From: Synechococcales cyanobacterium S06
GTDB taxonomy: Bacteria; Cyanobacteriota; Cyanobacteriia; Cyanobacteriales; JAABRE01
Assembly (NCBI GenBank): GCA_011391125.1
Contig: JAABRE010000006.1
Span: 33,131 to 97,130, forward strand
DNA: 64,000 nt
Direction of reading: 5' to 3'
Below are positions 18,335 to 36,149 of the stretch, piece after piece. The translations under genes were made by a program, and so were the position numbers. A model generated the notes under the pieces. That model was not told the DNA's origin and did not search any database. It saw only the letters and a list, made by a program, of their open reading frames with translations. Positions within the stretch are counted from its first letter, which is position 1, and every line of letters begins with the position of its first letter.

Positions 18335-21300
18335 ATGCACCATAACGAAACTGTCTCCATGAATCATCAACTGCCAGAAAAACAAGGACTATACGATCCA
18401 CAATTTGAACATGATGCCTGCGGTGTAGGTTTTATTGTTCATCAGAAAGGGCAAAAATCCCATGACATTGTCCAACAAGCACTGACCATCTTAATTAATT
18501 TAGATCACCGGGGAGCTTGTTGTGAACCGAATACCGGTGACGGAGCGGGAATTTTGATGCAAATTCCCCACAAATTCCTGACCAAAGTAGCCGCCGCCGA
18601 AAACATCAGCTTACCAGAAGTAGGCAACTACGGCGTTGGCATGATTTTCAGTTCACCCGATCCCGAAAAACGCCAAAAAGCAAGACAACTTTTTGAGGAA
18701 ATTGTAGCCGAAGAAGGGCAAAAAGTCCTCGGTTGGCGGATAATTCCCACGGACAATTTATCCTTGGGCAAATCAGCAAAAGCGTCAGAACCCTTTATGC
18801 AACAGGTGTTCATTGATCGCCACCCGGAACTGAAAGACGATTTGGCATTTGAACGCAAATTATACATCATCCGAAAAAGGACCCACTTTGAAATTCACCG
18901 CGAAGGAGGAGACAAACACTGGTACGCGGCGAGCATTTCCTGTCGTACCCTAGTCTATAAAGGGATGTTAATGCCCGAACAGGTCGGCAAATATTACCTC
19001 GACTTAAACGATCCTGACATGGAAAGCGCCCTGGCCTTGGTCCATTCGCGTTTTAGCACCAATACTTTCCCCAGTTGGGAACGATCTCACCCCTACCGTT
19101 ACATCGCCCATAACGGTGAAATTAACACCATGCGAGGTAACATCAACTGGATGAATGCGCGTCAGTCGCTTTTTGAGTCAGAATTATTCGGCGATGACCT
19201 CAAAAAAGTGCGCCATGCGATCAACATTAACGGTAGTGACTCAGGTATTTTCGACAACGCCCTGGAATTGTTGACCTTGTCAGGGCGATCGCTCCCCCAC
19301 GCTGTTATGATGATGGTACCCGAACCTTGGTCAGGTCACGAGTCCATGAGTCCAGAGAAAAAAGCCTTCTATAAATACCATTCCTGTTTAATGGAACCAT
19401 GGGACGGACCGGCGAGTATCGCCTTCACCGATGGTACAATCATGGGAGCAGTGCTAGATCGCAACGGTTTACGACCTTCTCGGTATTATGTCACCAAAGA
19501 TGACCTCGTAATTATGGCATCGGAAGCGGGAGTTTTACCCATCGAACCTGAAAGAGTAGCATTCAAAGGTCGTTTACAACCCGGTAGAATGTTCCTAGTT
19601 GACATGAAAGAAGGCCGAATCATCGACGACGAAGAAATTAAGGCCAAAATTGCCACCGAAAAACCCTATCAACAGTGGTTAGACGCTAATTTAGTGGAAT
19701 TAGACAGCTTACCCGACGCTGAAAATGTCCCCAGCAGCGATCTTGCAACCATTACCCAACGTCAAATGGCCTTCGGTTACAGCTTTGAAGAAATCAGAAT
19801 GTTGCTGAGTCCCATGGGTAAAAACGGCGTTGAAGCAACCGGCGCAATGGGTACAGATACCCCATTAGCAGTGCTTTCCAACCGTCCGAAAATCTTGTAC
19901 GATTACTTCCAGCAGCTTTTTGCCCAAGTTACCAACCCGCCGATTGATTCAATCAGGGAAGAAATCATCACTTCCGCCGTCACCACCATTGGTTCTGAAC
20001 ACAATTTATTAGCACCAACCCCCGAAAGTTGCCATTTAATCGAACTAAAAAGCCCAATTCTCAGTAACGCTGACTTAGCCAAAATTAAACAGCAAACTGA
20101 ATTTAGCAATGTTACCCTTGAGATTCTTTTTAACCCCAAAAATGAGGTAAAAGGTCTTGAAGAGGCATTGGATGGTGTTTTTAGCGCTGCTGACAAGGCA
20201 ATTAGCGAGGGATGCAGCCTCATCATTCTGAGCGATCGGGGTATCAGCAAAGACAAAGCACCAATTCCTGCCTTATTGGCAGTTGCTGGCTTACATCACC
20301 ACTTGATTAGAACCGGTACTCGCACCCGTGTTGGCATTGTCCTCGAATCAGGAGAACCTCGGGAAGTCCACCATTGCGCAGTTTTAATCGGTTATGGTTG
20401 TGGCGCAATTAATCCCTATTTGGCCTTTGAAACTTTAGAGCAAATGATTGCCGAAGGTTTATTGGTCGGCGTTGATCACAAAACCGCTTGTAAAAATTAT
20501 ATCAAAGCAGCCACCAAAGGAGTCACCAAAATTGCCTCTAAAATTGGCATTTCTACCCTCCAAAGTTATCGCGGAGCCCAGATTTTTGAGGCGATCGGCC
20601 TGAATAAATCAGTCATTGACAAGTATTTCAGTTGGACTGCTTCGCGGATCGAAGGTTCAGATTTGGCGGTCATTGCCAAGGAAGCGATTTTACGCCATAG
20701 TCATGGTTTCCCCGAACGTCCCACTGCAAATCCTACCTTGGATGTTGGTGGCGAATATCAATGGCGCAAAGATGGCGAAAAACACCTGCTGAGTCCCGAA
20801 GCAATTCACACCTTGCAAAAAGCGGTCCAGTTAGGCGATTATAACTTGTATAAGAAATATGCCAGTGAAATTAACGAGCAGAATCAGCAAACCTTTACCC
20901 TGCGCGGTTTATTGGACTTCAAAAAACGCGAGTCCATTCCTTTAGAGGAAGTTGAACCCCTCGAAGCGATCCTGAAACGCTTTAAAACAGGGGCTATGAG
21001 CTACGGTTCAATTTCTAAGGAGGCCCATGAAGCGTTGGCCATTGCCATGAATCGCATCGGCGGTAAATCCAACACCGGGGAAGGAGGGGAAGACCCCGAA
21101 CGTTACACCTGGACCAACGAAAAAGGGGACTCTAAAAATAGTGCCATCAAACAGGTTGCTTCGGGTCGTTTTGGGGTGACCAGTTTGTACCTTTCCCAAG
21201 CTAAGGAAATTCAGATCAAGATGGCGCAAGGGGCAAAACCCGGCGAAGGTGGTCAACTTCCGGGGTTAAAAGTCTATCCTTGGATTGCCAAGGTTCGTCA

Positions 21301-22933
21301 CTCAACCCCCGGTGTCGGCTTAATTTCACCCCCTCCTCACCACGATATTTATTCCATTGAGGATTTGGCGGAGTTAATCCACGATCTAAAAAATGCCAAT
21401 CGGGAAGCAAGGATCAATGTGAAGTTGGTTTCAGAAGTTGGCGTAGGTACAATTGCGGCCGGTGTAGCCAAAGCTCATGCTGATGTTGTCCTCATTTCTG
21501 GCTTTGACGGAGGAACTGGTGCATCGCCTCAAACTTCAATTAAACACGCAGGATTACCTTGGGAGTTAGGTTTGGCGGAAACTCACCAGACTTTGGTCCT
21601 CAATAATTTGCGTAGTCGGATTGTGGTGGAAACTGACGGACAGTTGAAAACTGGTCGGGATATTGCGATCGCTGCGTTACTCGGAGCGGAAGAATTTGGC
21701 TTCTCCACCGGTCCTCTGGTCACGTTAGGTTGTATTATGATGCGAGTTTGTCATCTAAATACTTGTCCCGTGGGAATTGCGACCCAAAATCCCGATTTAC
21801 GGGCGAAATTCACCGGTGATCCCGAATATACGGTGAATTTCATGAAGTTTATCGCGACGGAATTGCGCGAAATTATGGCCGAGTTGGGTTTCCGTACTTT
21901 AACGGAAATGGTTGGCCGGACCGAGGTTTTGGAAGCGAAAAAAGCGGTGGATCATTGGAAAGCTAAGGGAATTGACCTTTCTAACCTGCTTTATCAACCC
22001 GAAGTCGGTCCTGAAGTCGGTCGCTATTGTCAGATTCCCCAAGACCACGGGTTGGCAAAATCCCTCGACATGACGACTTTGTTAGATTTGTGCAAAGGGG
22101 CGATCGAAAATGGTGAGAAAGTTTCTGCAACTTTGCCCATTACCAATGTTAATCGCGTAGTCGGTACGATTTTGGGTAACGAAATCACCAAAAAACATTG
22201 GGAAGGTTTACCAGAAGACACCGTCCACCTCAAATTTAATGGTAGTGCAGGTCAAAGTTTAGGCGCGTTCGTACCCAAGGGTGTGACCATTGAATTAGAA
22301 GGCGATGCTAATGATTATTTAGGTAAGGGTTTGAGCGGTGGCAAAATCATCGTTTATCCGCCCAAAGTGTCAACTTTTGTCGCTGAGGAAAATATCATTG
22401 CTGGTAATGTTGCCTTTTACGGTGCAACCAGTGGGGAAGCCTACATTCGCGGTGTCGTTGGCGAGCGTTTCTGTGTGCGCAATTCCGGCGTTGCTGCGGT
22501 GGTTGAAGGCGTGGGCGATCATGCTTGCGAATACATGACCGGTGGTAAAGTTGTCGTGTTAGGTAAAACTGGTCGCAACTTTGCTGCGGGAATGAGCGGC
22601 GGTATTGCATACATCCTCGATGAAAACGGCGACTTTGCCCAACATTGTAATACCAGTATGGCGGATTTGGAAACCCTTGATCCCGAGGATATGGACACAG
22701 TGCATACATTAATCAGCAATCACGTCAAATATACGGAAAGTTCAAAAGGTGCGCAAGTATTAGAGAACTGGGAATCAATGTCCGCTAAATTCGTGAAAGT
22801 GATGCCCCGGGATTACAAACGGGTGTTAAACGCGATTAAGGAAGCGTTGGAAGCGGGTTTAAGCGGTGATGACGCACTTAATGCAGCTTTCGAGAAAAAC
22901 GCGGCCGATGTCGCCAGAATTGGTGGTAGCTAG
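18335..22933 (+). CDS. gltB: Glutamate synthase large subunit
   Basis: EHDACGVGF (Cys1), [38 protein letters not shown] (3Fe-4S); start may be the Met at 18359. Confidence 0.97.
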
Positions 22934-22985
22934 GTTCGTTGTTGCGCTTTAGCGCTAACGTAGGTGGGCATTGCCCACCCTACTA
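22933..22985. repeat. REP-like elements (GGTTCGTTGTTGCGCTTTAGCGCT plus GTAGGTGGGCATTGCCCACCCTAC)
   Basis: Short GC-rich hairpins; the same motifs recur elsewhere in the window. Confidence 0.8.
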
Positions 22986-23065
22986 ATCTTTCCCGTTATT
23001 TCGTTATAAAAAACCAATTTGCATTATAATTAAACTTATGTTATTAACTATGAAATATAAAGTCA

Positions 23066-23572
23066 ATGAAAAAAAACACATTAACTGTAATTGGGATTTT
23101 CTTATTAATTTTTGGTGTGCCATTCTTAATAGAATCTTTTAGAGTTCAAAAATTTCTTAATACACTTAATAGAATTTCTGATAAATCTTTTTCTGATCAG
23201 AAATTAACTCAAGAAGAGATAAACAATGTATCAAGCTATTATAATTATTATGGAGGAGATGTTAAGGCAATAAATACAGGTCAATTTTTATGTCAATTAA
23301 TCAAAGAAAGATACCCTTTACCTCCCTTTATTACAGTAAATGAAGTTACTAACCGCGAATATTTAGATGGATATTTAGGTTTTTATGTAATTTCACCTTT
23401 TTATGCTGGTTTTGCTTTTTCTAATGGAGAATTATATAAAAGTCTTAGTTATACTGAAGATTTATTTACAATTGTAGATGATCAAGTTCCTGAAAATTTT
23501 GATGTATTATCTTCAGCTATTTTTGCAGCTTCTGTGGAGGTTTATTGTCCTAAATATAAATTTAATGAATGA
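23066..23572 (+). CDS. Hypothetical membrane-anchored/exported protein (cassette 1)
   Basis: N-terminal hydrophobic segment; very AT-rich. Confidence 0.65.
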   Translation: MKKNTLTVIGIFLLIFGVPFLIESFRVQKFLNTLNRISDKSFSDQKLTQEEINNVSSYYNYYGGDVKAINTGQFLCQLIKERYPLPPFITVNEVTNREYLDGYLGFYVISPFYAGFAFSNGELYKSLSYTEDLFTIVDDQVPENFDVLSSAIFAASVEVYCPKYKFNE

Positions 23573-23610
23573 TATTTTCTAACTAAAGTTGTTAAAATTT
23601 AGCACAGGTT

Positions 23611-23663
23611 AGCTATTTTTAGCTTACAATATTAACAGATAAATAGGGCGATCGCCCTTTCTA
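23611..23663 (+). repeat. Cassette-boundary repeat R1
   Basis: AGCTATTTTTAGCTTACAATATTAACAGATAAATAGGGCGATCGCCCTTTCTA. Confidence 0.95.
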
Positions 23664-23688
23664 ATAAATTTTATTTAAGGAGGTAATT

Positions 23689-23901
23689 ATGACTAATACC
23701 TATACGGCAATTATTCAGGAAGATGGAGATTGGTGGATTGGTTGGATCGAAGAAATTCCGGGGGTAAATTGTCAAGAAAAAACCAGAGAAGAATTATTGA
23801 AAACCTTAAAAATTACCCTAGAAGAAGCTTTAGAATTTAATAGACAAGATGCTATTAATGCAGCAATTGGTAACTATCAAATTGAAAAAATTGCCGTATG
23901 A
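23689..23901 (+). CDS. hicB: HicB family antitoxin (short form)
   Basis: YTAIIQEDGDWWIGWIEEIPGVNCQEKTREEL; AGGAGG RBS. Confidence 0.85.
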   Translation: MTNTYTAIIQEDGDWWIGWIEEIPGVNCQEKTREELLKTLKITLEEALEFNRQDAINAAIGNYQIEKIAV

Positions 23902-24086
23902 AACGTAAAGAATTTATCCAATATTTGCGTTCTCAAGGTTGCGAAATAATTAGGGAAGGAAGTAATCATTCTTGGTGGTGTAATCCAGAATTTAATACTA
24001 GAAGTGCTATTCCTCGACATAATGAAATTAAGGATATTTTGGCTAAAAAAATCTGTAAAGACCTTGGAATTCCACCAATTAAGTAG
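23898..24086 (+). CDS. hicA: HicA family toxin
   Basis: REGSNH...IPRHNEI...KKICKDLGI; ATGA overlap with hicB. Confidence 0.9.
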   Translation: MKRKEFIQYLRSQGCEIIREGSNHSWWCNPEFNTRSAIPRHNEIKDILAKKICKDLGIPPIK

Positions 24087-24114
24087 CTTAAATTAGTTAA
24101 AATTTAGCAAGGGT

Positions 24115-24168
24115 AGCTATTTTTAGTTTACAATATTAACAGATAAATAAGGGCGATCGCCCTTCCTA
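24115..24168 (+). repeat. Cassette-boundary repeat R2
   Basis: AGCTATTTTTAGTTTACAATATTAACAGATAAATAAGGGCGATCGCCCTTCCTA. Confidence 0.95.
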
Positions 24169-24202
24169 CCAAATTTTAAATATATATTATTGTTTAATCA
24201 GA

Positions 24203-25048
24203 ATGCTTACACAAGAAATAATTAATTTAGGTGAACCATATTTTCAGAGTGAAAATTGTTTGATTTATAATTTAGATTGTTTAGAATCAATGCTAAAAAT
24301 GCCGTCTGAATGTATTAATTTAACAGTGACAAGTCCACCTTATAATATTGGTAAAGAATATGAAAATATTTTACCTTTATCGGATTATTTAAAATGGTGT
24401 GAAAAATGGATTCAACAAATTTATAAATTAACCGTTAATGATGGTTCTTTTTGGCTAAATTTAGGTTATTTATCAATTCCAAATTCTGCTAAAGCTATTC
24501 CTATTTCTTATTTACTTTGGGATAAAATTCCTTTTTATTTAATTCAAGAAATTGTCTGGAATTATGGAGCAGGAGTAGCCGCCAAAAACTTTTTTTCTCC
24601 CCGCAATGAGAAGTTTCTTTGGTATGTTAAAAATCAGGAAAATTATACTTTTAATTTAGATGAAATTAGGGATAAAAATGTTAAATATCCTAATCAAAAA
24701 AAGAATGGTAAAATTAAAGTCAATCCTTTAGGAAAAAACCCTACTGATGTTTGGCAAATTCCGAAAGTAACATCAGGAAAAGATAGATCATCTCAAGAAA
24801 GAACCTCTCATCCTGCTCAATTTCCTTTGACAGTAATTGATCGAATTATTAAGGCTTCTTCTCATCCTAATGATCTAATTTTAGACCCCTTTTTAGGATC
24901 AGGAACTACGGCGATCGCGGCTTTAAATTTAAACAGAAAATTTATCGGTTTTGAAATACGTCAAGATTACTGCGATCTTGCAGTTAATAGAATTAATAAT
25001 TTTTGCCAAAATGAAACTATTAAAAAGTCTCAATTATCTTTATTTTAA
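24203..25048 (+). CDS. Beta-class N4-cytosine DNA methyltransferase (M.ScaI-like)
   Basis: TSPPYN, HPAQFP, DPFLGSGTT; convergent with the REase. Confidence 0.88.
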   Translation: MLTQEIINLGEPYFQSENCLIYNLDCLESMLKMPSECINLTVTSPPYNIGKEYENILPLSDYLKWCEKWIQQIYKLTVNDGSFWLNLGYLSIPNSAKAIPISYLLWDKIPFYLIQEIVWNYGAGVAAKNFFSPRNEKFLWYVKNQENYTFNLDEIRDKNVKYPNQKKNGKIKVNPLGKNPTDVWQIPKVTSGKDRSSQERTSHPAQFPLTVIDRIIKASSHPNDLILDPFLGSGTTAIAALNLNRKFIGFEIRQDYCDLAVNRINNFCQNETIKKSQLSLF

Positions 25049-25645
25049 AGGTAATTCTAATAGTTTATAACGTTGGACTTCCGGACTTAATCTAGCCTGT
25101 TGTCCAGTTTGAGCTTTTTGACCTAACCAGTCAAACTCATCTAACCAACCAAAACGAATTTTATTAATTTTAGGTAGTTCATTTTCAATTTTTGAGTTAA
25201 TTTTAGGAAAATTTACTGCTAAATAATAACCTGATTTATTTTTTTTTGTTTGTTGTCCAGTAGTGCTTTTTTGTGCGTAACTACGATTACCATAAATACT
25301 ACCAGAACTAGAAGAAGTTTTTAATTCTATTGAAAAATAATCATTAGGAATATAAACAATATCTTTGTCATAATCTTTGTCTTCTTTTCGCCATAATTCA
25401 GGATATCTCGTCGCAAATTCTAAAGGGATAAGTTCATGTAATAATGTTCCTAAAAATTGAGGACGAGGGAATAAATCTATACCTATTTTATACTTTCTAC
25501 TTGTAATTTCAGAGGTAAATAATTCTGCCCACATTTTATTAACTATTTCCACTATTTCTTCCGTATTAATAGGGTGTTGGGCAATTAATTCTTTTGTTTT
25601 TGTTTCCCAATTTTCTGTTGATATTCCCTGATATGGTGAAATCAT
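25040..25645 (-). CDS. ScaI-family type II restriction endonuclease
   Basis: SPY...W..KT.ELI..HP, PQ..G..LHELIP, KDIVY...SIELKTSS (PD-ExK), GNRSYAQ, RFGWLD, TGQQARL recalled as the ScaI family pattern. Confidence 0.75.
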   Translation of the reverse strand: MISPYQGISTENWETKTKELIAQHPINTEEIVEIVNKMWAELFTSEITSRKYKIGIDLFPRPQFLGTLLHELIPLEFATRYPELWRKEDKDYDKDIVYIPNDYFSIELKTSSSSGSIYGNRSYAQKSTTGQQTKKNKSGYYLAVNFPKINSKIENELPKINKIRFGWLDEFDWLGQKAQTGQQARLSPEVQRYKLLELPLK

Positions 25646-25867
25646 TTATTCAATTCCTTTAAATAATTCACTTAATGACATTTCCAAAGTGGTAGCAATC
25701 TTTAAAAGATTCAAAAAAGCAACGTTTCTTTCACCTCTTTCAATTCCACCAATGTAATTACGATGTAGTCCACATAATTCGGCAAATTCCTCTTGAGATA
25801 ACCCTTTTGCCATTCTGAGACTACGCACTTTTACACCTAATTTTTTTAACTCTGAATTTTGTTTCAC
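25646..25867 (-). CDS. R-M controller (C) protein, XRE HTH
   Basis: [27 protein letters not shown]; directly upstream of and abutting the REase. Confidence 0.85.
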
Positions 25868-25917
25868 ATCCCCACTATATGGGATCAGAGTTCTTTTTCC
25901 TACACACTATGAGTGTG
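25868..25917 (-). promoter_or_regulatory. C-box operator(s)
   Basis: Palindrome CACACT-ATG-AGTGTG (25903-25917; ACTCATAGT core on the - strand) and a second ATCCC-N8-GGGAT at 25868-25885 abutting the GTG start. Confidence 0.7.
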
Positions 25918-25943
25918 ATCCGTGTTTTTGTGTTAAACTAATT

Positions 25944-27053
25944 TTGTTATTGATTTATTTAAGTAAAATGCAAAAAAATAATAATTTGTTAAATAAACAC
26001 CCTTATAAAATCCTTAAAAATCCCCAATCAACTAACTTTAATGTCATGGAATTATTTGCCGGTTGTGGGGGAATGGCCTTGGGTTTTGAAAATGCAGGTC
26101 TTCAAACTAAATTATTAGTAGAAATTGATAAAACCTGTTCTGAAACTTTGGCAAAAAATCGCCCTCATTGGCATATTATTAATCAGGATGTTACCCAATT
26201 AAAGTTTAGTGAATATAATAGTCAAGTTGACATTGTCGCTGGTGGTTTTCCTTGTCAAGCTTTTAGTCATGCTGGGGAAAGAAAGGGTTTTTTAGACACT
26301 AGAGGAACTTTATTTTTTGAGTTTGCTAGATGTGTAAAGGAAGTAAACCCCAAAATGGTGATCGCCGAAAATGTGCGCGGTTTAATTACCCATAAAAATG
26401 GCGAAACTTTAGCGATAATTTTAAATACTTTAGATGAATTGGGTTATAATTGTAGTTATAAATTACTTAATGCGAGTTATTTAGATGTTCCTCAAAAAAG
26501 AGAGCGAATTTTTATTATTGCCACCCAAAAAGACCTTAATATTAAACCAATTTTTCCGACTGAAAATTCCTATATTATTACTTTAAAAGAAGCCTTAAAA
26601 GACTGTCCAAAATCACAGGGAGTTAGCTATAATCAGAGGAAAAAAGAGATTATGGACTTAGTACCCGAAGGAGGAAATTGGCGTAATTTACCCGAAGAAA
26701 TCCAAAAAGAATATATGAAAAATAGTTACTATCAAGGAGGAGGAAGAACGGGTTTTGCGAAAAGATTATCATACAATGAACCTAGTTTAACCGTTACTTG
26801 TTCTCCTGCTCAAACACAAACTGAAAGATGTCATCCCACGGAAACCAGACCTTTAACAGTAAGGGAATATGCGAGAATTCAAACATTTCCTGATAGTTGG
26901 GAATTTATGGGTTCATTAACTGGCCAATATAAACAAATTGGTAATGCAGTTCCTGTTAATATGGCCTATCATATTGGTAAATGTTTAATAGAAATGTTAA
27001 CAGGAAAATCAGAAAGTTATCGCCAAGAATTAAGGCAATTATCTTTATTTTAA
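25944..27053 (+). CDS. C5-cytosine DNA methyltransferase (Sau96I/Eco47II-like, possibly GGNCC)
   Basis: FAGCGG, GGFPCQ, ENV, QKRERIF, QIGNAVP; the TRD TCSPAQ.QTERCHP resembles GGNCC enzymes; start probably ATG 25968. Confidence 0.9.
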   Translation: MLLIYLSKMQKNNNLLNKHPYKILKNPQSTNFNVMELFAGCGGMALGFENAGLQTKLLVEIDKTCSETLAKNRPHWHIINQDVTQLKFSEYNSQVDIVAGGFPCQAFSHAGERKGFLDTRGTLFFEFARCVKEVNPKMVIAENVRGLITHKNGETLAIILNTLDELGYNCSYKLLNASYLDVPQKRERIFIIATQKDLNIKPIFPTENSYIITLKEALKDCPKSQGVSYNQRKKEIMDLVPEGGNWRNLPEEIQKEYMKNSYYQGGGRTGFAKRLSYNEPSLTVTCSPAQTQTERCHPTETRPLTVREYARIQTFPDSWEFMGSLTGQYKQIGNAVPVNMAYHIGKCLIEMLTGKSESYRQELRQLSLF

Positions 27054-27069
27054 TCTTGTAATTATACTC

Positions 27070-27123
27070 TATTTTTAGCTTAGAATATTAACAAATAAGT
27101 AGGGCGATCGCTTTTTCTATTTG
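27070..27123 (+). repeat. Cassette-boundary repeat R3
   Basis: TATTTTTAGCTTAGAATATTAACAAATAAGTAGGGCGATCGCTTTTTCTATTTG. Confidence 0.9.
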
Positions 27124-27230
27124 CTTTCGAGAAAAACGCTGCTGACGTAGCCAGAATTGGTGGTAGTTAGGTTCGTTGTTGCGCTAAAGCGCTAAGGTAG
27201 GTTGGCAGTGCAACGGCCTACCAACTAATT
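27123..27230 (+). repeat. Duplicate of the gltB 3' end ([15 protein letters not shown]) plus its downstream REP-like sequence
   Basis: 27123-27170 matches 22886-22933 with 5 substitutions, all at synonymous third positions. Confidence 0.95.
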
Positions 27231-27310
27231 ATTAACAAAAATTGTTTAATATACAGATTTATTGTAAAATATAACAAGGTTAAATTTAAACAAAAAATAA
27301 AGTAAAAATT

Positions 27311-27892
27311 ATGGCAACTAAACTTTTACCTGCAAAAGTACAGAAAGAAATTGCTAGACTCTCTGAAAAATCTCAAAATACCATTACCCGTGACGACCTA
27401 GAAAAATTAGTTTTACTTGTCTATCCTAGTAAATCTGAACAGAAATCTAACCATAATATTAAACTATCTATTTCAGAAAAACCTTTAAAACTTGCGGAAA
27501 TTAAAGAAGCAATATATAAACGTTTTGATGTTAAAAATACTGACGAATTAAAGAAATCAGGCCAATTTCAAATGGCCACTGATGGACTGGGAAAATTAAA
27601 TTTTAATAACAAAGAAACATGGGAAATGTTATATCGTAAATGGATTGATATTCTTCCCGATGAAACCAATCAAGAAGGTTATGGTTGTATTAATGGTATT
27701 GACATTTTTAAATATTCTCGACCTTGGCAAGTTTTTAATTTAGACGGAAAAACTGCCACTAAAGAAGATGTCAAAAAAGCTTTTTATCAATTATCTAAAA
27801 TTTATCATCCTGATAATCAAGAAACAGGCGATCGAAAAATCTTTGAACGTCTTAATAAAATGTATGATAGTTTAATTGCAGGAATATCTTAA
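27311..27892 (+). CDS. Protein with C-terminal J domain
   Basis: DVKKAFYQLSKIYHPD...FERLNKMYDSL. Confidence 0.8.
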   Translation: MATKLLPAKVQKEIARLSEKSQNTITRDDLEKLVLLVYPSKSEQKSNHNIKLSISEKPLKLAEIKEAIYKRFDVKNTDELKKSGQFQMATDGLGKLNFNNKETWEMLYRKWIDILPDETNQEGYGCINGIDIFKYSRPWQVFNLDGKTATKEDVKKAFYQLSKIYHPDNQETGDRKIFERLNKMYDSLIAGIS

Positions 27893-27973
27893 GGCGATCG
27901 AAAAATCTTTGATAGTTTTAATCCAATTTAATTTAAAATAGTCTAAATTGCTAATTACGGGAGTGTCTTAGAA

Positions 27974-29243
27974 ATGACAAATTCAAACATAATTAACAGA
28001 GAAGATTTTTTTTATTACTGAAGAATACGTTTTAAAAGGTCTGGAAATAAATAAGGAAGTTTTAGAAATAATTATAGCCACCATAGAAAAAGATGAAAGT
28101 TTTATCTGGGAAGAAAATGTCCATTTCAGATATGTTCCTAAAAAGAATAAAACTAGACTTTTTGCTAGACAAGGTCTCATTGTGATGGGAGAATTTTTTG
28201 ATACTTCTTTTGATACTTCTGAAGAATTAACAAAATTAAAAACACTACTACAAAAAAAAGACAACGAGATAGAATTAATTAAAATTGACCATGAAATTAT
28301 TGAGAATACTTTAAAGGTTTTAGGTAATAATTCAGATAAAATCTTAGTTAAAGGAAATCGCCATTGGATGAATTTTAGCGATGTCCGCAAACTCTTTAAA
28401 ACCACTACACCTCGTTTAAATCAGGCCTTTGAAGATATTGCCCGTTCTGATCTACCATTATTTATAGAAGAAGATTTTGATGACATAGAAGATCAACGTT
28501 ATTATTCTTTTTCAGGTTTAGAAAGAATTGGTAATGAATTATCTAATACCTTAACTAGAAAATCTAAAGCTTTATTTGTTAACAGAGCCAAGAAAAAATC
28601 TCCTGACCAAATACAAAAAGTCTATAGTCCTATTCTTCCCTCAGAACAGAAGATTACAAGTGCTATGACACAAGCAAGAACACAACAAAATAAGGTCTGT
28701 CAAGTTACAGGGGAATCTGATCCAAAATTAGCAGTACATCATCTTTATGATAAAAGTACCTATCCTGAATTAGCTATAGATCAAGATAATCTTATCCTGA
28801 TTAAAGAGCCAATACACCATAATTTTCATGCTTGGAATGAAGGTTTTGATAAACCCTGTACTATAAATGATTTTATCTCTTATATCAAAACAATGCAACC
28901 TGAATTTTATGAGCATATTGCATTTGAACTTGATAAACGTCAACTAGCTTTACAAACAAAATTAAAATACCGTTCTAAATTCAAACCATTAGAACCAGCT
29001 TCAACCAAATCCATTGATACAGAATCACCTAAAAATAAGATAACTTCTCAGGAATCAATTAATAGAAATATTCTTGGCAAAACTACTTTTGCAAATATCA
29101 ATAATGAACAAGTAGAAGGTAAAATCTTAGCAATTTCTACTACATACGGTTCAGATCAAAAACCAATTATTTCTCTTTGTTTTCAAAAAAAGGAACATAA
29201 ATATGGAATTTGGTTGCCTTCTTCAGCTTTTATTAATCAATAG
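27974..29243 (+). CDS. HNH-like endonuclease domain protein; 5' part frameshifted at a T8 run
   Basis: CQVTG...LAVHHL...NLILI...H.NFH; the frame of ORF 28182 is open back to ~28008, and ATG 27974 joins it if T8 (28006-28013) is read as T7. Confidence 0.65.
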
Positions 29244-29280
29244 CTGATTAGAGCGGTTTAAAATGCTAAGAATTGCGATC

Positions 29281-29360
29281 TATTTTTAGCTTACAATATT
29301 AACAGATAAATAGGGCGATCCCGCCGGAATCCGCGCGGAGCAGGTGCGCCCTTTCTAGTT
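29281..29360 (+). repeat. Cassette-boundary repeat R4 with a 27-bp insertion inside HIP1
   Basis: ...TAGGGCGATC[CCGCCGGAATCCGCGCGGAGCAGGTGC]GCCCTTTCTAGTT. Confidence 0.92.
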
Positions 29361-29391
29361 AGTAAATATTTGAGGAAAAAATTTTATTTCT

Positions 29392-29832
29392 ATGCCATCA
29401 AGAGACATTATTCATAATATTGTTAAACAAGCAATCATTAAAGATGGCTGGAAAATAACCGATGATCCCTATACTATTTCTTATGGGGAAAGATTTTTAT
29501 TTATTGATTTGGGAGGTCAGCAAATTAAGGAAAATTCTCAAGGAGAGTTTATTGGAGCAGAAAAAGAAAATCGAAAAATTGCCATTGAAATTAAAGATTT
29601 TCGCAGTAAATCAGATATTTCTGCTTTACAACAGGCCATCGGCCAATATACTCTTTATCAACTTCTTTTAAAGGAAATTGAACCTGATAGAAATATTTAT
29701 TTGGCCATCACAAATTTTACTTATGACAATATTTTTTCTGAACCTATTGGTCAATTAGTTATTAATAAACTTCCCTTAAAATTAATTGTTGTAAATTTAG
29801 CAAAAATGGAGGTTAAATTATGGATTCATTAA
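29392..29832 (+). CDS. xisH: XisH family protein
   Basis: RD..H..VK.A.IKDGW.ITDDP, IDLG, KIAIEIK.F, AIGQY. Confidence 0.9.
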   Translation: MPSRDIIHNIVKQAIIKDGWKITDDPYTISYGERFLFIDLGGQQIKENSQGEFIGAEKENRKIAIEIKDFRSKSDISALQQAIGQYTLYQLLLKEIEPDRNIYLAITNFTYDNIFSEPIGQLVINKLPLKLIVVNLAKMEVKLWIH

Positions 29833-30146
29833 CAAATAAACGCCAAATAATTAAAGAAGTTCTTAATTATTATTCTCAATTTAAACCTTCCCATGGTGAT
29901 ATTCGTTTAGAAACTATTTTTGACGAAAATCAAGATAGATATGCTTTAATGCAAATAGGATGGGACAGGGGAAAAAGAATTAGGGGAAATTTAATTTATT
30001 TAGCTATTCGTGACGGAAAAATTTGGCTAGAATACGATGGAATAGAACAAGGAATTATTCAAGATTTAATTAGTCAAGGTATCCCCGAAAATGAGATTAT
30101 TTTAGGTTTTTTAACTGATGTTTCTTCTGTATCCTTAAGTGCATAA
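29820..30146 (+). CDS. xisI: XisI family protein
   Basis: FDE..DRY....GW, DGKIWLEYDGIE.GI..DL...GIP...I.LGF. Confidence 0.9.
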   Translation: MDSLTNKRQIIKEVLNYYSQFKPSHGDIRLETIFDENQDRYALMQIGWDRGKRIRGNLIYLAIRDGKIWLEYDGIEQGIIQDLISQGIPENEIILGFLTDVSSVSLSA

Positions 30147-30156
30147 AAACGCCATC

Positions 30157-30212
30157 TTTTTTAGCTTATAATATACATATATCGGGGCGATCGATCGCCC
30201 TTTCTATCTGTT
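30157..30212 (+). repeat. Cassette-boundary repeat R5 (degenerate left half, GCGATCGATCGC apex)
   Basis: TTTTTTAGCTTATAATAT...GGGGCGATCGATCGCCCTTTCTATCTGTT. Confidence 0.85.
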
Positions 30213-30229
30213 TTAATTTAATTAAAATA

Positions 30230-30574
30230 ATGATTTTTCCCCCTCGACCTATTAATAATGAACAAAAATTCATAACCACTCAAAATCGCCTTGATTTTCT
30301 CTTGGATAAACAGGAATTAAATCAAGATGAACGAGACTATCTTAAAATTTTAGGGATGTTAATTTACGATTATGAGGAAAAATATGAGACTATTCCTAAT
30401 CTTGAAGATATGGAAATAATTAGCTCACTTTTGACCGATTATAATTTAACAATTCAAGATTTATTACCAATTTTTGTAGAGGAATCAACTATTATTAATA
30501 TTTCGGAAGGAAAAAGAAAAATAACGTCAGAAGAAAAAGCAAAATTAGAGATTATGATTAATAATTTATTATGA
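30230..30574 (+). CDS. HigA-like antitoxin (orphan, probably N-terminally truncated)
   Basis: FPPRPI.NE...DYL.ILGMLI.DYEE plus a C-terminal HTH; no toxin upstream. Confidence 0.7.
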   Translation: MIFPPRPINNEQKFITTQNRLDFLLDKQELNQDERDYLKILGMLIYDYEEKYETIPNLEDMEIISSLLTDYNLTIQDLLPIFVEESTIINISEGKRKITSEEKAKLEIMINNLL

Positions 30575-31638
30575 TTAATAATGGTGAATATAAAATTCTT
30601 AAAAATCCCCAATCAACTAACTTTAATGTCATGGAATTATTTGCCGGTTGTGGGGGAATGGCCTTGGGTTTTGAAAATGCAGGTCTTCAAACTAAATTAT
30701 TAGTAGAAATTGATAAAACCTGTTCTGAAACTTTGGCAAAAAATCGCCCTCATTGGCATATTATTAATCAGGATGTTACCCAATTAAAGTTTAGTGAATA
30801 TAATAGTCAAGTTGACATTGTCGCTGGTGGTTTTCCTTGTCAAGCTTTTAGTCATGCTGGGGAAAGAAAGGGTTTTTTAGACACCAGAGGAACGTTATTT
30901 TTTGAGTTTGCTAGATGTGTAAAGGAAGTAAACCCCAAAATTGCGATCGCCGAAAATGTGCGCGGTTTAATTACCCATAAAAATAGCGAAACTTTAGCGA
31001 TAATTTTAAATACTTTAGCTGAACTTGGGTTATCATTATAGTTATAAATTACTTAATGCAAGCTATTTAGATGTTCCTCAAAAAAGAGAGCGAATTTTTA
31101 TTATTGCAACCAGAAAAGACCTTAATATTAAACCAATTTTTCCGACCGAAAATTCCTATATTATTACTTTAAAAGAAGCTTTAAAAGACTGTCCAAAATC
31201 ACAGGGAGTTAGCTATAATCAGCGTAAAAAAGAGATAATGGACTTAGTCCCAGAAGGAGGAAATTGGCGTAATTTACCCGAAGAAATCCAAAAAGAATAT
31301 ATGAAAAATAGTTACTATCAAGAAGGAGGAAGAACGGGTTTTGCGAAAAGATTATCATACCATGAACCTAGTTTAACAGTTACTTGTTCTCCTGCTCAAA
31401 CACAAACAGAAAGATGTCATCCCGAAGAAACCAGACCTTTAACAGTAAGGGAATATGCGAGAATTCAAACATTCCCAGATGATTGGGAATTTATGGGTTC
31501 ATTAACTGGCCAATATAAACAAATTGGTAATGCAGTTCCTGTTAATATGGCCTATCATATTGGTAAATGTTTAATAGAAATGTTAACAGGAAAATCAGAA
31601 AGTTATCGCCAATAATTAAGGCAATTATCTTTATTTTA
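30571..31638 (+). pseudogene. Disrupted second copy of the C5 methyltransferase at 25944
   Basis: Near-identical to ~26004-27053; +1 insertion near 31024 (GAACTTGGG vs GAATTGGG) and a GAA>TAA stop at 31613. Confidence 0.9.
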
Positions 31639-31651
31639 ATCTTGTAATTAT

Positions 31652-31678
31652 AGCTTATTTTTCACTTAAAATATTAAG
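31652..31678 (+). repeat. Cassette-boundary repeat R6 (left-half remnant)
   Basis: AGCTTATTTTTCACTTAAAATATTAAG, at the same position after the MTase copy as R3. Confidence 0.55.
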
Positions 31679-31727
31679 TAAAGTTGAGATTATTTAAAGA
31701 TAAATTGACTTAGTTTAAACAAAAAAA

Positions 31728-32513
31728 ATGAAAACTGACCACATTTTTTATCGCATTTTTAAAGATTTACCCACAACTTTTTTTGAGTTATGGGAAAACT
31801 CACCCCAACAGGTGAACAATTACCGTTTTGATTCGGTAGAATTGAAACAAACAGCCTTTAGAATTGATGGAGTATTTTTACCCGACGACATTGACAATCC
31901 TATTTATTTTACGGAGGTACAATTTCAAAAAGATTGTACTATTTATGCTCGTTTATTTTCTGAAATATTCACTTATATTAGAGAAAATGATCCTAAAATA
32001 CGTTGGCGAGCTATGATTATTTTTAGAAGTCGTAGCATTGAACCAACAATTAGAGAAAGAGAATCCGTAGAACCATTGTTAGATTGTCCCTTTGTAAAGC
32101 GAATTTATTTGAATGAATTAACAGTAGATGAAAATACTCCTTTAGGAGTGCAAATTATTCACCTAATTGTTACTAAGAAAAAGCAGTTTTTAGAGACATC
32201 AAACAAGTTAATTCAGCAAGTAAAACAACAATTTACCGATGAACAAACTCGGTTAGAAATGTTAAATTTGTTAGAAACAATTATCTTAACTAAATTACCC
32301 AAAATGAGTCGCAAGGAGTTAGAGAATATGTTTGGAGTTAATGATTTAAGAAAAACCCGTTTTGCTCAAGAATTACTTGAGGAAGGGGAACAAGAAGCGA
32401 AAATTAAAATAATTCCTCGATTATTAGGAAAAGGATTTTCCCTTGAAGAAATTGCTGCAATTGTCGAATTAGATATTAAACAAGTGCGACAAGTTATTGC
32501 TAACTTGAATTAA
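31728..32513 (+). CDS. Rpn family / DUF2887 PD-(D/E)xK protein
   Basis: MKTDHIFYRIF, FDSVELKQTAFRIDGVF, EVQFQKD. Confidence 0.88.
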   Translation: MKTDHIFYRIFKDLPTTFFELWENSPQQVNNYRFDSVELKQTAFRIDGVFLPDDIDNPIYFTEVQFQKDCTIYARLFSEIFTYIRENDPKIRWRAMIIFRSRSIEPTIRERESVEPLLDCPFVKRIYLNELTVDENTPLGVQIIHLIVTKKKQFLETSNKLIQQVKQQFTDEQTRLEMLNLLETIILTKLPKMSRKELENMFGVNDLRKTRFAQELLEEGEQEAKIKIIPRLLGKGFSLEEIAAIVELDIKQVRQVIANLN

Positions 32514-32634
32514 TTTTAGGGTGGGTAATACCCACCTTTTTGTTATTAATTAATATTTGAACATAAAAGAAGAGGAATCAATGAATTTTATTAATAGATT
32601 ATATAATTGGTTTTTAAGTGGTTTAAAAAGAAGT

Positions 32635-32690
32635 TATTTTTAGCTTACAATATTAACAGGTAAATCGGGCGATCGCCCTTTCTATCTGTT
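32635..32690 (+). repeat. Cassette-boundary repeat R7 (most complete hairpin)
   Basis: TATTTTTAGCTTACAATATTAACAGGTAAATCGGGCGATCGCCCTTTCTATCTGTT. Confidence 0.95.
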
Positions 32691-32723
32691 ATAATCTTCT
32701 CAAATAAAACTTAGTTTTTTGAT

Positions 32724-32954
32724 ATGGAAACCTTAGAAATTCGCCAACAAATTAATGAATATCTTGAGCAACTTTCCCCTGATAAATTATTAGTTGCTGC
32801 TGATTTTTTAGCTTATTTAAGCCAAAAAGAATCTGATGATCCTACCCTCGAATTATTGAAAATTGACGGGATTGAAGAAGCTTATCAAAATGCGAAAAAA
32901 AATATTATACAAGGTAAGGTGATCTCAGTTGACCAACTTAAACGAAAATATTAA
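32724..32954 (+). CDS. Putative antitoxin
   Basis: Small acidic ORF upstream of and overlapping the RelE gene. Confidence 0.7.
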   Translation: METLEIRQQINEYLEQLSPDKLLVAADFLAYLSQKESDDPTLELLKIDGIEEAYQNAKKNIIQGKVISVDQLKRKY

Positions 32955-33213
32955 TTATCTGGTTCTTATTAGTATTGATGCTCAACCGTTTTTTGAGTCG
33001 GCTGCTCCATCTTTACAAAAGAAATTAGATCGCTGTTTTGACCGTTTAAAAATTGACCCTTATAATTATCCTAATATTAAACCATTAAAAGGTGTTTTTT
33101 CTGGTAGTTATCGTTATCGTGTTGGTGATTATCGAGTTATTTATGAAATAGATGATAATTTAAAACAAGTGACAATTATTTTGATTGCACATCGAAATAA
33201 AATTTATGAATAG
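32929..33213 (+). CDS. relE: RelE/ParE family toxin
   Basis: IKPLKG...YRYRVGDYRVIYEIDD...I.HRNKIY. Confidence 0.9.
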   Translation: MTNLNENINYLVLISIDAQPFFESAAPSLQKKLDRCFDRLKIDPYNYPNIKPLKGVFSGSYRYRVGDYRVIYEIDDNLKQVTIILIAHRNKIYE

Positions 33214-33225
33214 TTAAAATAGATA

Positions 33226-33285
33226 AGCTATTTTTAGCTTACAACATTAACAAATAAATAGGAGTTATATTTCTTTCTATCTGTT
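33226..33285 (+). repeat. Cassette-boundary repeat R8 (HIP1 apex replaced)
   Basis: AGCTATTTTTAGCTTACAACATTAACAAATAAATAGGAGTTATATTTCTTTCTATCTGTT. Confidence 0.88.
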
Positions 33286-33337
33286 ACAATCTTAATGAAA
33301 GTTAACCTTAATTTTTTAGTATGAAAAAATTAAAAAT

Positions 33338-33826
33338 ATGGAATGGAAAAATGTCTGTGAAAATAAAGATTTGCGTAATTTACCCTTTAAAATTGAGTTA
33401 AATAAATGGGGTCAAATTGTCATGAGTCCAGCTAAAATTAAACATTCTTTTTATCAAGGTTTGATTGCAGAATTATTAAATTCTTTCTTAAAAACAGGTT
33501 TTGCTTTTCCTGAATGTGCGATCGATACTAATGATAATACGAAAGTTGCTGATGTGGTTTGGTGTTCAGATCAAAGATTAACAATAATTGAAAATGAAAC
33601 TTCTGCTTCCATTGCTCCTGAAATTTGTATAGAAATTATTTCTTCTAGTAATACTTTTGAAGAAATGGAAACTAAAAAAAATTTGTATTTTGAAGTACAA
33701 GCTCAAGAATTTTGGCTTTGTGACCAGGAGGGAAATATTACATTTTATAACCCAGAAGGTGAATTAGAACAATCAAAGTTAGTTCCCCAATTTCCTAAGA
33801 AAATTAAACAAAGGGTTATTTCTTAA
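33338..33826 (+). CDS. Uma2 family endonuclease
   Basis: G.IVMSP, VADVVW, APEICIEIIS, EFWLCD. Confidence 0.88.
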   Translation: MEWKNVCENKDLRNLPFKIELNKWGQIVMSPAKIKHSFYQGLIAELLNSFLKTGFAFPECAIDTNDNTKVADVVWCSDQRLTIIENETSASIAPEICIEIISSSNTFEEMETKKNLYFEVQAQEFWLCDQEGNITFYNPEGELEQSKLVPQFPKKIKQRVIS

Positions 33827-33889
33827 TCTGTGTAGATAATGTTATCAATCTATTAAAAAAAGACTTGAAAAATTACAGGGATAAATACA

Positions 33890-34171
33890 ATAAATCATAA
33901 ATATTTTGGTAGTAATTTTGATGATTTTTTAGCGGAAGAATGCTTATTAGAAAAGATAGAAGTAACGGCCATTAAAAAAGTTATTGCCTATCAAATAGAA
34001 CAAGAAATTAAACAAAAAGGTTGGACAAAAACAGAAATGGCAAAAAAAATGAACACCAGTCGTTTATTATGAAATCTTTTATTAGACCCAAACAATGCTT
34101 CGGTTAATTTACAAACTATTACCAAAGCTGTCTTTATTTTATGCAAAAAATTGAAAATTGAACTGGTTTAA
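33890..34171 (+). pseudogene. XRE-family antitoxin pseudogene
   Basis: Manual translation (I)NHKYFGSNFDDFLAEE...AIKKVIAYQI...TKTEMAKKMNTSRLL*NLLLDPNNASVNLQT...KKLKIELV*; ATA in place of a start codon, internal TGA at 34070. Confidence 0.8.
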
Positions 34172-34178
34172 ACCAAGT

Positions 34179-34228
34179 TATTTTTAGCTTACAATAGTAA
34201 CAAATAACTATGGCGATCGATCGCCTTT
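34179..34228 (+). repeat. Cassette-boundary repeat R9 (last copy)
   Basis: TATTTTTAGCTTACAATAGTAACAAATAACTATGGCGATCGATCGCCTTT. Confidence 0.85.
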
Positions 34229-34264
34229 ATTAACAAAAAAAATAACCAATTACTAATTATTACC

Positions 34265-34906: not shown

Positions 34907-35039
34907 TATCTCTATGGAGAAATAAGCTTTGCACAAATTGCCTAATAATTGAGATTTTTGAGGAGCAAATTATAAAAAAAGCTCCTCAAAAAGAGAAGTA
35001 ATTATAGACAAAAACTCCCCTAAATTTTTCTTGAACTGA

Positions 35040-35765: not shown

Positions 35766-35986
35766 AATTTCTCCTCTTTTTATTACAATGAAGTTAATTA
35801 AATGTATAAAAAATTATCTCATTAATCGGGCTAAATTGCCCATATTTTTAATTATAATTGATCGGGGAGCATTTGCTTATTTTTTAATCTGAAATTTTGC
35901 TCCCAAAATAATCTTAAATATTACCATCCCTAATAATTTATACTTGGCCAGGTTATAAAGTTAGCTGGTGAAGATGAGGAAATAGA

Positions 35987-36051
35987 TAATAGGTAATAAG
36001 TAATAGGTAATGGGTAATAGGTAATAGGTAATAAGTAATAAGTAATAGGTA
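35987..36051. repeat. Heptamer tandem repeat (TAATAGG/TAATAAG)n
   Basis: ~9 imperfect 7-bp units. Confidence 0.85.
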
Positions 36052-36149
36052 AAAAAAGCGAACTATTTTTTGCTCAATAAGCTCAAATTGTCACCTTATC
36101 AAGTATTTTATCAAATAGATCATCAATTATTAAAATACTCCAATTAAGG

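Follow-up and report, generated by a model that had tools for sequence, protein, structure and literature searches.

We have analysed an 11.3-kb interval located between the genes gltB and DUF305 in a stretch of 64,000 nucleotides from Synechococcales cyanobacterium S06 (contig JAABRE010000006.1 of assembly GCA_011391125.1, positions 33,131 to 97,130 of the forward strand), which we refer to as the window and whose numbering is used throughout. The window is part of a 99.7-kb contig (C135) of a draft genome (G000) that comprises 4.81 Mb in 168 contigs, with a GC content of 35.7% and 1727 octamers of the highly iterated palindrome HIP1. With 29.8% GC, the interval is AT-richer than the genes on either side (gltB 46.9%, DUF305 43.3% GC). 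It is a strain-variable accessory island of about nine co-oriented modules, which are parted by a junction sequence specific to this locus that we termed U.

A junction sequence repeated at a single locus

U is present in eight clear copies and one remnant, all on the + strand:

23611..23673, + strand: U copy c1, found in repeat, core and profile searches; 91 nt at 90% in common with c2
24115..24178, + strand: U copy c2, found in repeat, core and profile searches and in pairwise alignment
27067..27122, + strand: U copy c3, whose right arm ends in ...CTATTTG and abuts a gltB' fragment; repeat, core and profile searches
29278..29367, + strand: U copy c4, whose HIP1 centre is interrupted by a GC-rich mini-insert of 28 bp (29321–29348); alignment
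30153..30222, + strand: U copy c5, with a diverged left part, a GATC-duplicated centre and a full right arm; nhmmer, E = 3e-10
31652..31677, + strand: U remnant c6, left ~20 nt only, into which the methylase duplication runs; nhmmer, E = 0.48 on its own
32632..32701, + strand: U copy c7, the most complete, with the full 38-bp palindrome and a TATAAT-like tail; repeat, core and profile searches
33226..33296, + strand: U copy c8, with a replaced HIP1 centre and a full right arm; repeat, core and profile searches
34176..34229, + strand: U copy c9, the terminal copy, which abuts the chromosomal flank; its right side is the same as in the single U of metagenome contig L051

All copies are located between open reading frames (ORFs), 504–2952 nt apart and each facing the next gene, and in 9/9 cases the downstream start codon follows 8 to about 190 nt past U. 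A search with a 22-nt core allowing up to three mismatches returned seven matches, 7/7 on the + strand (at 23616, 24120, 27072, 29283, 32637, 33231 and 34181), and shuffled controls gave matches in 0/100. The diverged copy at 30158 was detected with the profile at the E-value listed for c5 and carries four mismatches to the core. The remnant c6, which is weak when taken alone, is recognizable because a 96.3%-identical duplication of a C5 methylase gene extends into its first ~20 nt.

The first-pass annotation of this DNA had described nine directly oriented, intergenic copies of the motif, and its positions agree with ours within 2–5 nt. It had noticed the motif nowhere else in the window. There is no further copy, but 18 nt on the minus strand (16419–16436) match the left part of U exactly, inside a coding ORF for a 1425-aa UvrD/GajB-like protein (13251–17528), 6.5 kb upstream of the array. 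From base composition, we roughly estimate the chance expectation for an exact 18-nt match to U at ~0.002 genome-wide.

Across the 168 contigs of the genome, the 22-nt core with up to two mismatches is matched only seven times, in each case by an array copy, and 11 further matches with three to four mismatches look like chance. A nhmmer search of the genome with a profile of U gave eight strong matches (E ≤ 3e-10), all within 11 kb of one contig and followed by the reverse matches of the palindrome itself and by HIP1-like noise. The same profile identified no U near recombinase genes of the genome or elsewhere outside of the locus. In 40 relatives, the core with up to three mismatches yielded single matches (with 2–3 mismatches) in 9/40, about equal to the six genomes matched by a reversed-pattern control. 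The 150 other genomes of the order contain no strong match, with a sequence-only Infernal model scoring 24.4 bits at best compared to 48.4–70.8 bits for the true copies, and an exact scan of 185,579 species genomes with a degenerate IUPAC pattern found 22 single matches, none of them titled cyanobacterium. There were no matches in viral contigs and none in plasmid and phage collections. No U-like sequence is found in the congener G001 at its gltB flank or upstream of its DUF305 homologue, and an Rfam scan of positions 22000–36500 at E ≤ 1 returned only three weak and unrelated matches. A scan of metagenomes gave two matches in total, one of which (L052) was dropped as chance after reading; the sole true relative is the 2065-bp JGI contig L051. 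U is so far confined to this species-level lineage. The profile scan of the genome and its relatives had been proposed in the first-pass annotation as a check, together with the view that a motif scattered genome-wide like a repetitive extragenic palindromic (REP) element or terminator would speak against a cassette array. In this respect the outcome does not speak against its proposal: strong matches are found solely at this locus, and 8/8 of them lie within 11 kb.

Cargo of the modules

The genes between the copies of U were assigned with searches of Pfam, NCBIfam and PADLOC. The modules and the chromosomal genes that frame them are:

18335..22933, + strand: gltB, glutamate synthase large subunit, left chromosomal flank (GATase_2, Glu_syn_central, Glu_synthase and GXGXG domains)
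23066..23572, + strand: module 1, 168-aa hypothetical protein (ORF; no family above cut-off)
23689..24086, + strand: module 2, hicB-like gene and hicA (HicA_toxin E = 1e-10; UPF0150-like E = 8.5e-5, below the Pfam cut-off)
24203..27053, mixed strands: module 3, N4/N6 methylase (+), ScaI-like endonuclease (−), helix-turn-helix (HTH) C protein (−) and C5 methylase (+) (N6_N4_Mtase 9e-63, RE_ScaI 2e-68, HTH_3 1e-15, DNA_methylase 2e-91)
27311..29243, + strand: module 4, DnaJ-domain protein (193 aa) and 353-aa protein, possibly HNH, unconfirmed (DnaJ 3e-9)
29392..30146, + strand: module 5, xisH and xisI (XisH 3e-48, XisI 3.5e-33)
30230..31615, + strand: module 6, 114-aa ORF and second C5 methylase, whose frame is broken at 31024 by an extra nucleotide (methylase duplication)
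31728..32513, + strand: module 7, Rpn-family/DUF2887 PD-(D/E)XK protein (DUF2887 1e-69; TIGR01784 92.9 bits, cut-off 52.1)
32724..33213, + strand: module 8, 76-aa ORF and ParE/RelE toxin (ParE_toxin 1e-10)
33338..34072, + strand: module 9, Uma2 nuclease-fold protein and HTH remnant ending at an in-frame stop (Uma2 2.6e-16; HTH_37 E = 0.004, weak)
34265..34906, + strand: DUF305 gene, right chromosomal flank (DUF305 1.4e-51)

Most gene calls made from the letters alone are reproduced by these searches, including hicBA, the ScaI-like restriction–modification (R-M) system with its C protein, the C5 methylase and its second copy, the J-domain protein, xisHI, rpn, relE and uma2, but the HicB-like protein scores below the cut-off and the proposed HNH and higA genes were not confirmed. 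For the 353-aa protein, the leads to an HNH nuclease are weak (PtuB at E = 0.003, Atlas HNH clusters at 0.78–0.82), and the 114-aa ORF has no match in Pfam or NCBIfam and resembles the N-terminus of PD-Lambda-2_B (E = 3e-9). What had been described as an antitoxin remnant after uma2 corresponds to the HTH_37 match of module 9, which is weak and ends at an in-frame stop. The insert between c1 and c2 consists of a ribosome binding site and two ORFs only (~415 bp).

The two versions of the C5 methylase gene (26004–27091 and 30589–31677) are 96.3% identical with one gap and include a 200-nt stretch at 100%, which suggests gene conversion. The second version has a different N-terminus and is fused behind the 114-aa ORF, and its reading frame is broken by the insertion at 31024. 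To the left, the duplication ends within the gene and not at a repeat. The Rpn/DUF2887 gene is found on the truncated copy c6 in the window (31678–31727) and, as a remnant, downstream of DUF305 in L051 (852–1064). Since the DUF2887 family occupies 8–9 loci in the genome, including contigs C12 and C132 beside regions rich in toxin–antitoxin (TA) genes, we regard it as a lead and not as evidence that an Rpn-family gene is present in this array, in the one of C12 and as a neighbour of the only U in L051.

Anatomy and conservation of U

Multiple and pairwise local alignments define a core common to all copies, which extends from about −5 to +38/+48 relative to the anchor TTTTTAGC and thus covers ~45–55 nt. 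Its left block (TATTTTTAGCTTACAATATTAACAGATAAATAGGGCGATCG) is strongly conserved, holds a small hairpin (AAGCTA-TTTT-TAGCTT) and constitutes the left arm of an imperfect 38-bp palindrome centred on HIP1 (TAACAGATAAATAGGGCGA / TCGCCCTTTCTATCTGTTA). The palindrome has an imperfect 15-6-15 layout, with 15-nt arms around CGATCG and outer boxes of the sequence TATTAAC and GTTATAA/GTTACAA. Its right arm and a TATAAT-like tail are complete in c5, c7 and c8, and the arm is shortened or altered in c1, c2, c3 and c9. The centre and both arms are intact in c7 only, c4 having both arms around an interrupted centre. The extended centre GGGCGATCGCCC occurs 36 times in the genome, with three of these occurrences in the array.

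The palindrome displays no covariation above that of shuffled alignments, with 80.9% pairing in 14 pairs compared to 79.8% after shuffling and a score that is reached by 218/500 shuffles. Folding of eight copies as single-stranded DNA gave z-scores ranging from −2.6 to +1.9 and no common fold beyond the HIP1 stem. In light of the absent covariation and the unremarkable folding, U is conserved as a sequence, chiefly in its left 40 nt, and not as a structure. The core is also more uniform than its surroundings, as c1 and c4 agree in 41/41 positions and c1 and the U of L051 are 98% identical over 43 columns, with the flanks of L051 at 79–95%.

The 28-bp mini-insert of c4 has a second copy with three mismatches on the minus strand of contig C45 near 4334, in the same GGGCGATC / ... 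/ GCC context, and a similar insert is found in one copy of the C12 repeat. It may be a tiny HIP1-targeting element.

Duplications private to individual inserts

Certain inserts are bracketed by homology that is not shared with the remaining copies. In pairwise alignments, the 91 nt common to c1 and c2 reach well past the common core on either side of the ~415-bp hicBA insert, and c7 and c8, on either side of the ParE/RelE genes, have ~125 nt in common at 76%. A further direct duplication of 89 nt involves the 3' end of gltB:

22886..22974, + strand: DR1, the last 48 nt of gltB and 41 nt downstream, first unit of the duplication; 89% identical to 27123–27211
27123..27211, + strand: DR2 (gltB'), pseudo-copy of the gltB 3' end; 89% identical to 22886–22974

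The second unit directly follows the truncated right arm of c3, and the duplication brackets 4.1 kb (22975–27122) that contain a complete R-M system and the C5 methylase. The insertion of R-M genes with long target duplication was reportedly described by Nobusato and colleagues in 2000. In a later paper, such insertions are recognized by R and M genes lying within less than 20 kb and by a duplication longer than 30 bp, with Microcystis among the examples and repeats without other occurrence in the genome (Furuta et al., 2010, PMC2853133). The segment 22975–27122 has these properties, with R and M genes inside, a size below 20 kb and a repeat above 30 bp. The insert and its surroundings are free of mobile-element genes, as C135 encodes no integrase, resolvase or Y1 transposase, and a single Rpn-family gene is located in another module.

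The duplications around hicBA, ParE/RelE and the R-M block point to an integration process that duplicated its target. We infer that the same pattern would also result from single-crossover (Campbell-type) integration of a circular fragment carrying the stretch of homology. In G001, whose gltB is 80% identical, one gltB end is followed by a different C5 methylase with a BsaWI-like endonuclease and then by aspS. In this genus, R-M genes thus insert at the 3' flank of gltB.

Differences between related strains

The contig L051 contains the 3' end of a C5 methylase gene (92–95% identical), one U, a DUF305 homologue (81–87%) and the DUF2887 remnant. The left part of its U is of the c1/c2 type, and its centre and right side are of the c9 type. 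The joint to the methylase gene is located not in U but ~25–35 nt to its left, at 11 nt (TCTTTATTTTA) that the end of the methylase gene has in common with the sequence upstream of c9, and this microhomology points to non-site-specific joining.

Further variation was found in Logan contigs of four sequencing runs, which were compared with the window at 90% likeness. In X1 the window is recovered in contigs that break at U; the runs X1–X3 possibly stem from the source sample, X1 and X3 being from one study, so that they are not independent. Runs X5 and X7–X11, whose shares are small, were left out of the comparison. X6 is from a separate study and contains relatives that are ~90–99% alike. Two of its contigs join 27098 to 29281 (shorter side 61 letters) and 27107 to 29314 (45 letters), placing the methylase, a single U and xisHI in succession and lacking the module with gltB', the DnaJ-domain protein and the 353-aa protein. 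Another contig joins 29358 to 23665 (45 letters) and contains U followed by hicBA, with a left end that, judged from the lengths of the pieces, would reach a methylase 3' end. A third arrangement, joining 23652 to 30221 (42 letters), connects a c1-type U with the 114-aa ORF. Contigs of X6 also lack the mini-insert of 28 bp in c4. At 90% likeness, X6 indicates a single-copy form of the repeat for U at c3/c4 and none for the gltB 3' duplication. Joints with shorter sides (22956 to 24221 with 25 letters, 29111 to 33147 with 24 and, in X4, 26267 to 27703 with 24) were not used, and no conclusion was drawn from the gaps in the cover of X6 at roughly 24.7–25.6 kb and 31.0–32.8 kb, across which no joining contig was seen.

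As judged from the X6 pieces, the succession of methylase, U and hicBA would not be derivable from the order in the window by simple deletion. With the reservation that assembled contigs may be chimeric, the differences between related strains comprise whole modules, and their breakpoints lie in U or within ~35 nt of it. The first-pass annotation had held that gains and losses between strains which do not break at the repeats would argue against its proposal, and the differences in X6 and L051 are found at or beside U.

Relation to integrons and resident recombinases

No genes for tyrosine, serine or Y1 recombinases were found on C135, and the genome contains no IntI. Two matches to PF00589 were identified, one of them broken, and neither is matched by an IntI model. 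The intact protein is a divergent tyrosine recombinase encoded on a 2.1-kb contig, for which only XerD-type models match, with 27.9 bits compared to the XerD cut-off of 329.6. Other recombinases of the genome include two IS607 transposases, one XisF-like large serine recombinase and seven Y1_Tnp matches on other contigs. The lack of U-like sequences near the IS607 and Y1 genes weighs against mobilization by resident IS200/IS605 or IS607 enzymes.

The attC sites of integrons span 57–141 bp and contain boxes of the type RYYYAAC...GTTRRRY as well as extrahelical bases. The prediction of an integrase-less array of co-oriented accessory modules bounded by one repeat is borne out by our data, but its filing as integron-like or as a cluster of attC sites without integron-integrases (CALIN) is not, given that there is no IntI, a palindrome of 38 bp, outer boxes that deviate from the attC consensus, no covariation and only one complete copy (c7). 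The array is probably neither an integron nor a CALIN, and it is not a family of REP elements, miniature inverted-repeat transposable elements (MITEs) or dispersed terminators. TA-rich cargo, which is typical of sedentary chromosomal integrons, is shared by the array. In what is covered by the available text of Cury et al., 2016 (PMC4889954), the array also resembles integrons and CALINs in its co-oriented and mostly promoterless modules, in a spacing below 4 kb, in the similar imperfect palindrome that follows each of them and in sites that resemble one another more closely than any sequence beyond the array; the lack of a nearby integrase is shared with CALINs. It differs from integrons by the short site (38 bp, with a core of ~45–55 nt), the conservation of sequence instead of structure and the lack of one arm in most copies of U.

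Origin of the array

We tentatively favour, at a confidence that stays somewhat short of even, serial integration at one pad with long target duplication, or by the Campbell mechanism, followed by recombination between the copies of U. All copies would then descend from one intergenic sequence, into which foreign or intragenomic DNA would have entered repeatedly as at a landing pad, with each target-duplicating event leaving either U-insert-U or gltB3'-insert-gltB3'. General or microhomology-driven recombination between copies would delete, duplicate and re-order modules and at the same time keep the core homogeneous, so that no dedicated integron-type machinery would be needed. U may in addition supply expression signals to the largely promoterless inserts. 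This scenario is in accordance with the homology private to pairs of copies, the gltB 3' duplication around the R-M block, the microhomology in L051, the decayed right arms and the lack of a recombinase and of a second locus or replicon with U. The better conservation of the core compared to its flanks fits ongoing exchange between copies. Several observations weigh against it. The term long target duplication names a pattern more than an enzyme, and every duplication includes the same ~45-nt core, suggesting that something targets this core as would be the case for a specific site. The conserved left part and the imperfect 15-6-15 palindrome resemble a recombinase site. Since c1–c3 are located inside the block bracketed by gltB, U would have existed in two contexts before these merged, which is easier to envisage if modules travel with U. 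Finally, the contigs of X6 were obtained from a mixed community and compared at 90% likeness, with chimeric joins at repeats being possible.

The points concerning the core would find a direct explanation in a dedicated site-specific cassette system, where U, with its 15-nt arms around CGATCG and an accessory block on the left, is the recombination site. Modules would leave as circles that carry a single U and be inserted again at another U by a recombinase encoded elsewhere, akin to integron cassettes or accreted cis-mobilizable elements. We rate this possibility not far behind the favoured one, even if we consider it unlikely on balance. It would account for nine co-oriented sites bounding unrelated and mostly promoterless modules, for an imperfect palindrome around a 6-bp core and its conservation above the flanks, for the presence of this core in every duplication and of U on both sides of the gltB' duplication, and for the empty site and altered neighbours in X6. 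The foreign junction in c3 is located exactly after ...CTATTTG, equivalent to CTG/TTA in complete copies. Candidate enzymes are encoded elsewhere in the genome (the divergent tyrosine recombinase and the XisF-like recombinase), and the array itself contains xisHI. Against it, centre and both arms are present in c7 alone, the full right arm is all that c5 and c8 retain, c4 is interrupted, and the right arms of c1, c2, c3 and c9 are shortened or altered. Structural constraint is not evident from covariation, U is found neither beside any recombinase gene nor elsewhere in the genome, in phages or plasmids or in the 150 genomes of the order, and extended homology private to pairs would be unexpected from a short core site. 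To our knowledge, large serine recombinases do not recombine identical sites, which also counts against such a system. The proposal that U is the site of a new cyanobacterial cassette-capture platform, where a trans-acting enzyme would recognize the HIP1-centred palindrome and its conserved left block and would insert, excise and shuffle promoterless defence and TA modules at one pad, is in our view doubtful. Its candidate enzymes would be the orphan tyrosine recombinase, the XisF-like recombinase acting together with the XisHI of the array or the Rpn-family PD-(D/E)XK nuclease. If true, the platform would be a functional analogue of integrons without IntI or attC, and the C12 array would then hint at a wider class.

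The orientation of U, with 9/9 copies facing the downstream gene, could alternatively reflect a role primarily in expression, as a portable promoter, 5' leader or operator whose repetition causes rearrangement as a by-product. The left part contains TACAAT and the right tails of c7, c8 and c5 contain TATAAT, TACAAT or TTTAAT. In two lineages, the terminal copy precedes the chromosomal DUF305 gene, and the C12 junction repeat combines a terminator-like hairpin, an inverted repeat and TTGACA in a motif that is conserved across families. The reuse of similar promoters before unrelated genes is described in the accessible portion of a published study (PMC3575422). We nevertheless consider it improbable that expression is the main role, as a scan for consensus promoters shows no excess (58 sites, with 58.1 expected) and overlaps with U only at c7 and c9 (9/12 matches), as the DUF305 homologue of G001 has no U-like upstream sequence, and as a promoter role would leave the placement of modules between copies and the gltB 3' duplication unexplained. 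Mobilization by HUH/Y1 enzymes of the IS200/IS605 type would have inserted transposase-less modules 3' of TTAC. Their right end would be AAGCTA-TTTT-TAGCTT, and their left end would be formed by the HIP1 hairpin, which follows TTAC at a distance of 18 nt. The left end of IS608 has a similar geometry of TTAC, 18 nt and hairpin, insertion is strictly one-directional and the genome has the seven Y1_Tnp matches. The lack of U-like sequences beside Y1 genes or outside of the locus, the conservation that continues unbroken across the supposed TTAC junction and the weak folding (z-scores −2.6 to +1.9) make this mode of transfer very improbable. Ordinary dispersed repeats, be it REP elements, MITEs or terminators, or chance similarity could be invoked since HIP1 is common, with its 1727 copies, and short matches to a hairpin followed by T residues are present at some copies. 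We consider the probability of this explanation as close to negligible, because none of 100 shuffles match, the eight strong profile matches fall within 11 kb of 4.8 Mb and even the extended centre is found only 36 times in the genome. The remaining probability is assigned to mechanisms outside the readings discussed here.

Comparison with described systems

Small modules with TA or accessory genes and short palindromic sites, which are acted upon by a recombinase encoded elsewhere, are also known from the pdif modules of Acinetobacter plasmids and from Xer-dependent elements. The pdif sites alternate in orientation and are plasmid-borne, whereas all sites of the array are direct and chromosomal. 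Among known patterns, insertion with long target duplication comes closest to the array, and in architecture integron/CALIN arrays and accreted cis-mobilizable elements do. Long-target-duplication insertions, as described in the accessible parts of PMC2853133, share with the array the absence of a transposase or integrase and direct repeats, tens to hundreds of bp in length, which have no other occurrence in the genome and are single-copy in the absence of the insert; R-M genes are their typical cargo. Their counterparts are the 89-nt gltB duplication around the R-M genes, the 91-nt U duplication around hicBA and the apparent single-U empty site in X6. The array differs in that the same target was used ~9 times in series, for mostly TA and nuclease cargo, and in a target core that varies less than its flanks. 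Serial reuse of this kind was not found described in the part of Furuta et al., 2010 (PMC2853133) that was available. Cis-mobilizable elements (CIMEs) and their tandem accretion, in the available excerpts of Guedon et al., 2017 (PMC5704250), are similar in comprising integrase-less units with att-like direct repeats that are arranged head-to-tail and adjoin a housekeeping gene at its 3' end, which is duplicated. In contrast to CIMEs, the units of the array are small (0.4–3 kb, one to four genes) and retain no remnants of genes for integration or transfer, the gltB 3' end is found at 1/9 boundaries with U at the others, and no cognate integrative and conjugative element, integrative mobilizable element or integrase was found. 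What sets this locus apart is a single pad of ~45–55 nt that was used about nine times in series, taking up TA and nuclease modules that are very small and for the most part promoterless. In a non-exhaustive search of parts of the literature on cyanobacterial cassette arrays, no description of a HIP1-centred repeat bounding cassettes turned up, although an earlier description is possible.

The locus offers a compact natural example for the assembly of integrase-less defence and TA islands and for the origin of gene cassettes. If a dedicated enzyme is involved, it would represent a new gene-capture system in cyanobacteria. If not, long-target-duplication insertion and ordinary recombination alone would be able to build an integron-like array, calling for caution in site-specific readings of repeat-bounded arrays. 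In either case, the locus provides a testable landing pad in a phylum whose members are often naturally transformable.

Other repeats in the genome

A k-mer screen of the whole genome for clustered repeats mostly returned coding repeats, segmental duplications (C132, C22) and MITE-like units (C117), with only C12 resembling the array. This second co-oriented accessory array (locus L058) occupies positions 3739–9608 of contig C12 and contains a RelE-like pair, an AAA ATPase, DUF4160 with DUF2442, DUF2887 with DUF4351 and a PD-(D/E)XK protein. Its junction repeat consists of a terminator-like hairpin followed by GTTCGGTTATCCGTACTTGACAAA. The respective 19-mer, with up to two mismatches, is found in 18/400 other genomes of the order, in some of them in multiple copies, within a conserved element of ~120 nt that matches no Rfam family. 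On contig C132 (locus L059, about 5.8–19 kb), co-oriented pairs of small TA-like genes display the upstream motif CAGTTAATTGAGGTGACAATTCCC... at four starts, and the repeats accompany paralogous or segmentally duplicated genes.

Two features were observed at the right border of the array. The DUF305 gene contains an internal duplication of 119 nt (34408–34526 and 34702–34820, 79% identity), and the alignment with its homologue in L051 is without the part between the two duplicated stretches. Further downstream, at about 35977–36053, an element of ~75 nt has dozens of matches in G001 with 79–94% identity and is probably a dispersed MITE-like repeat.

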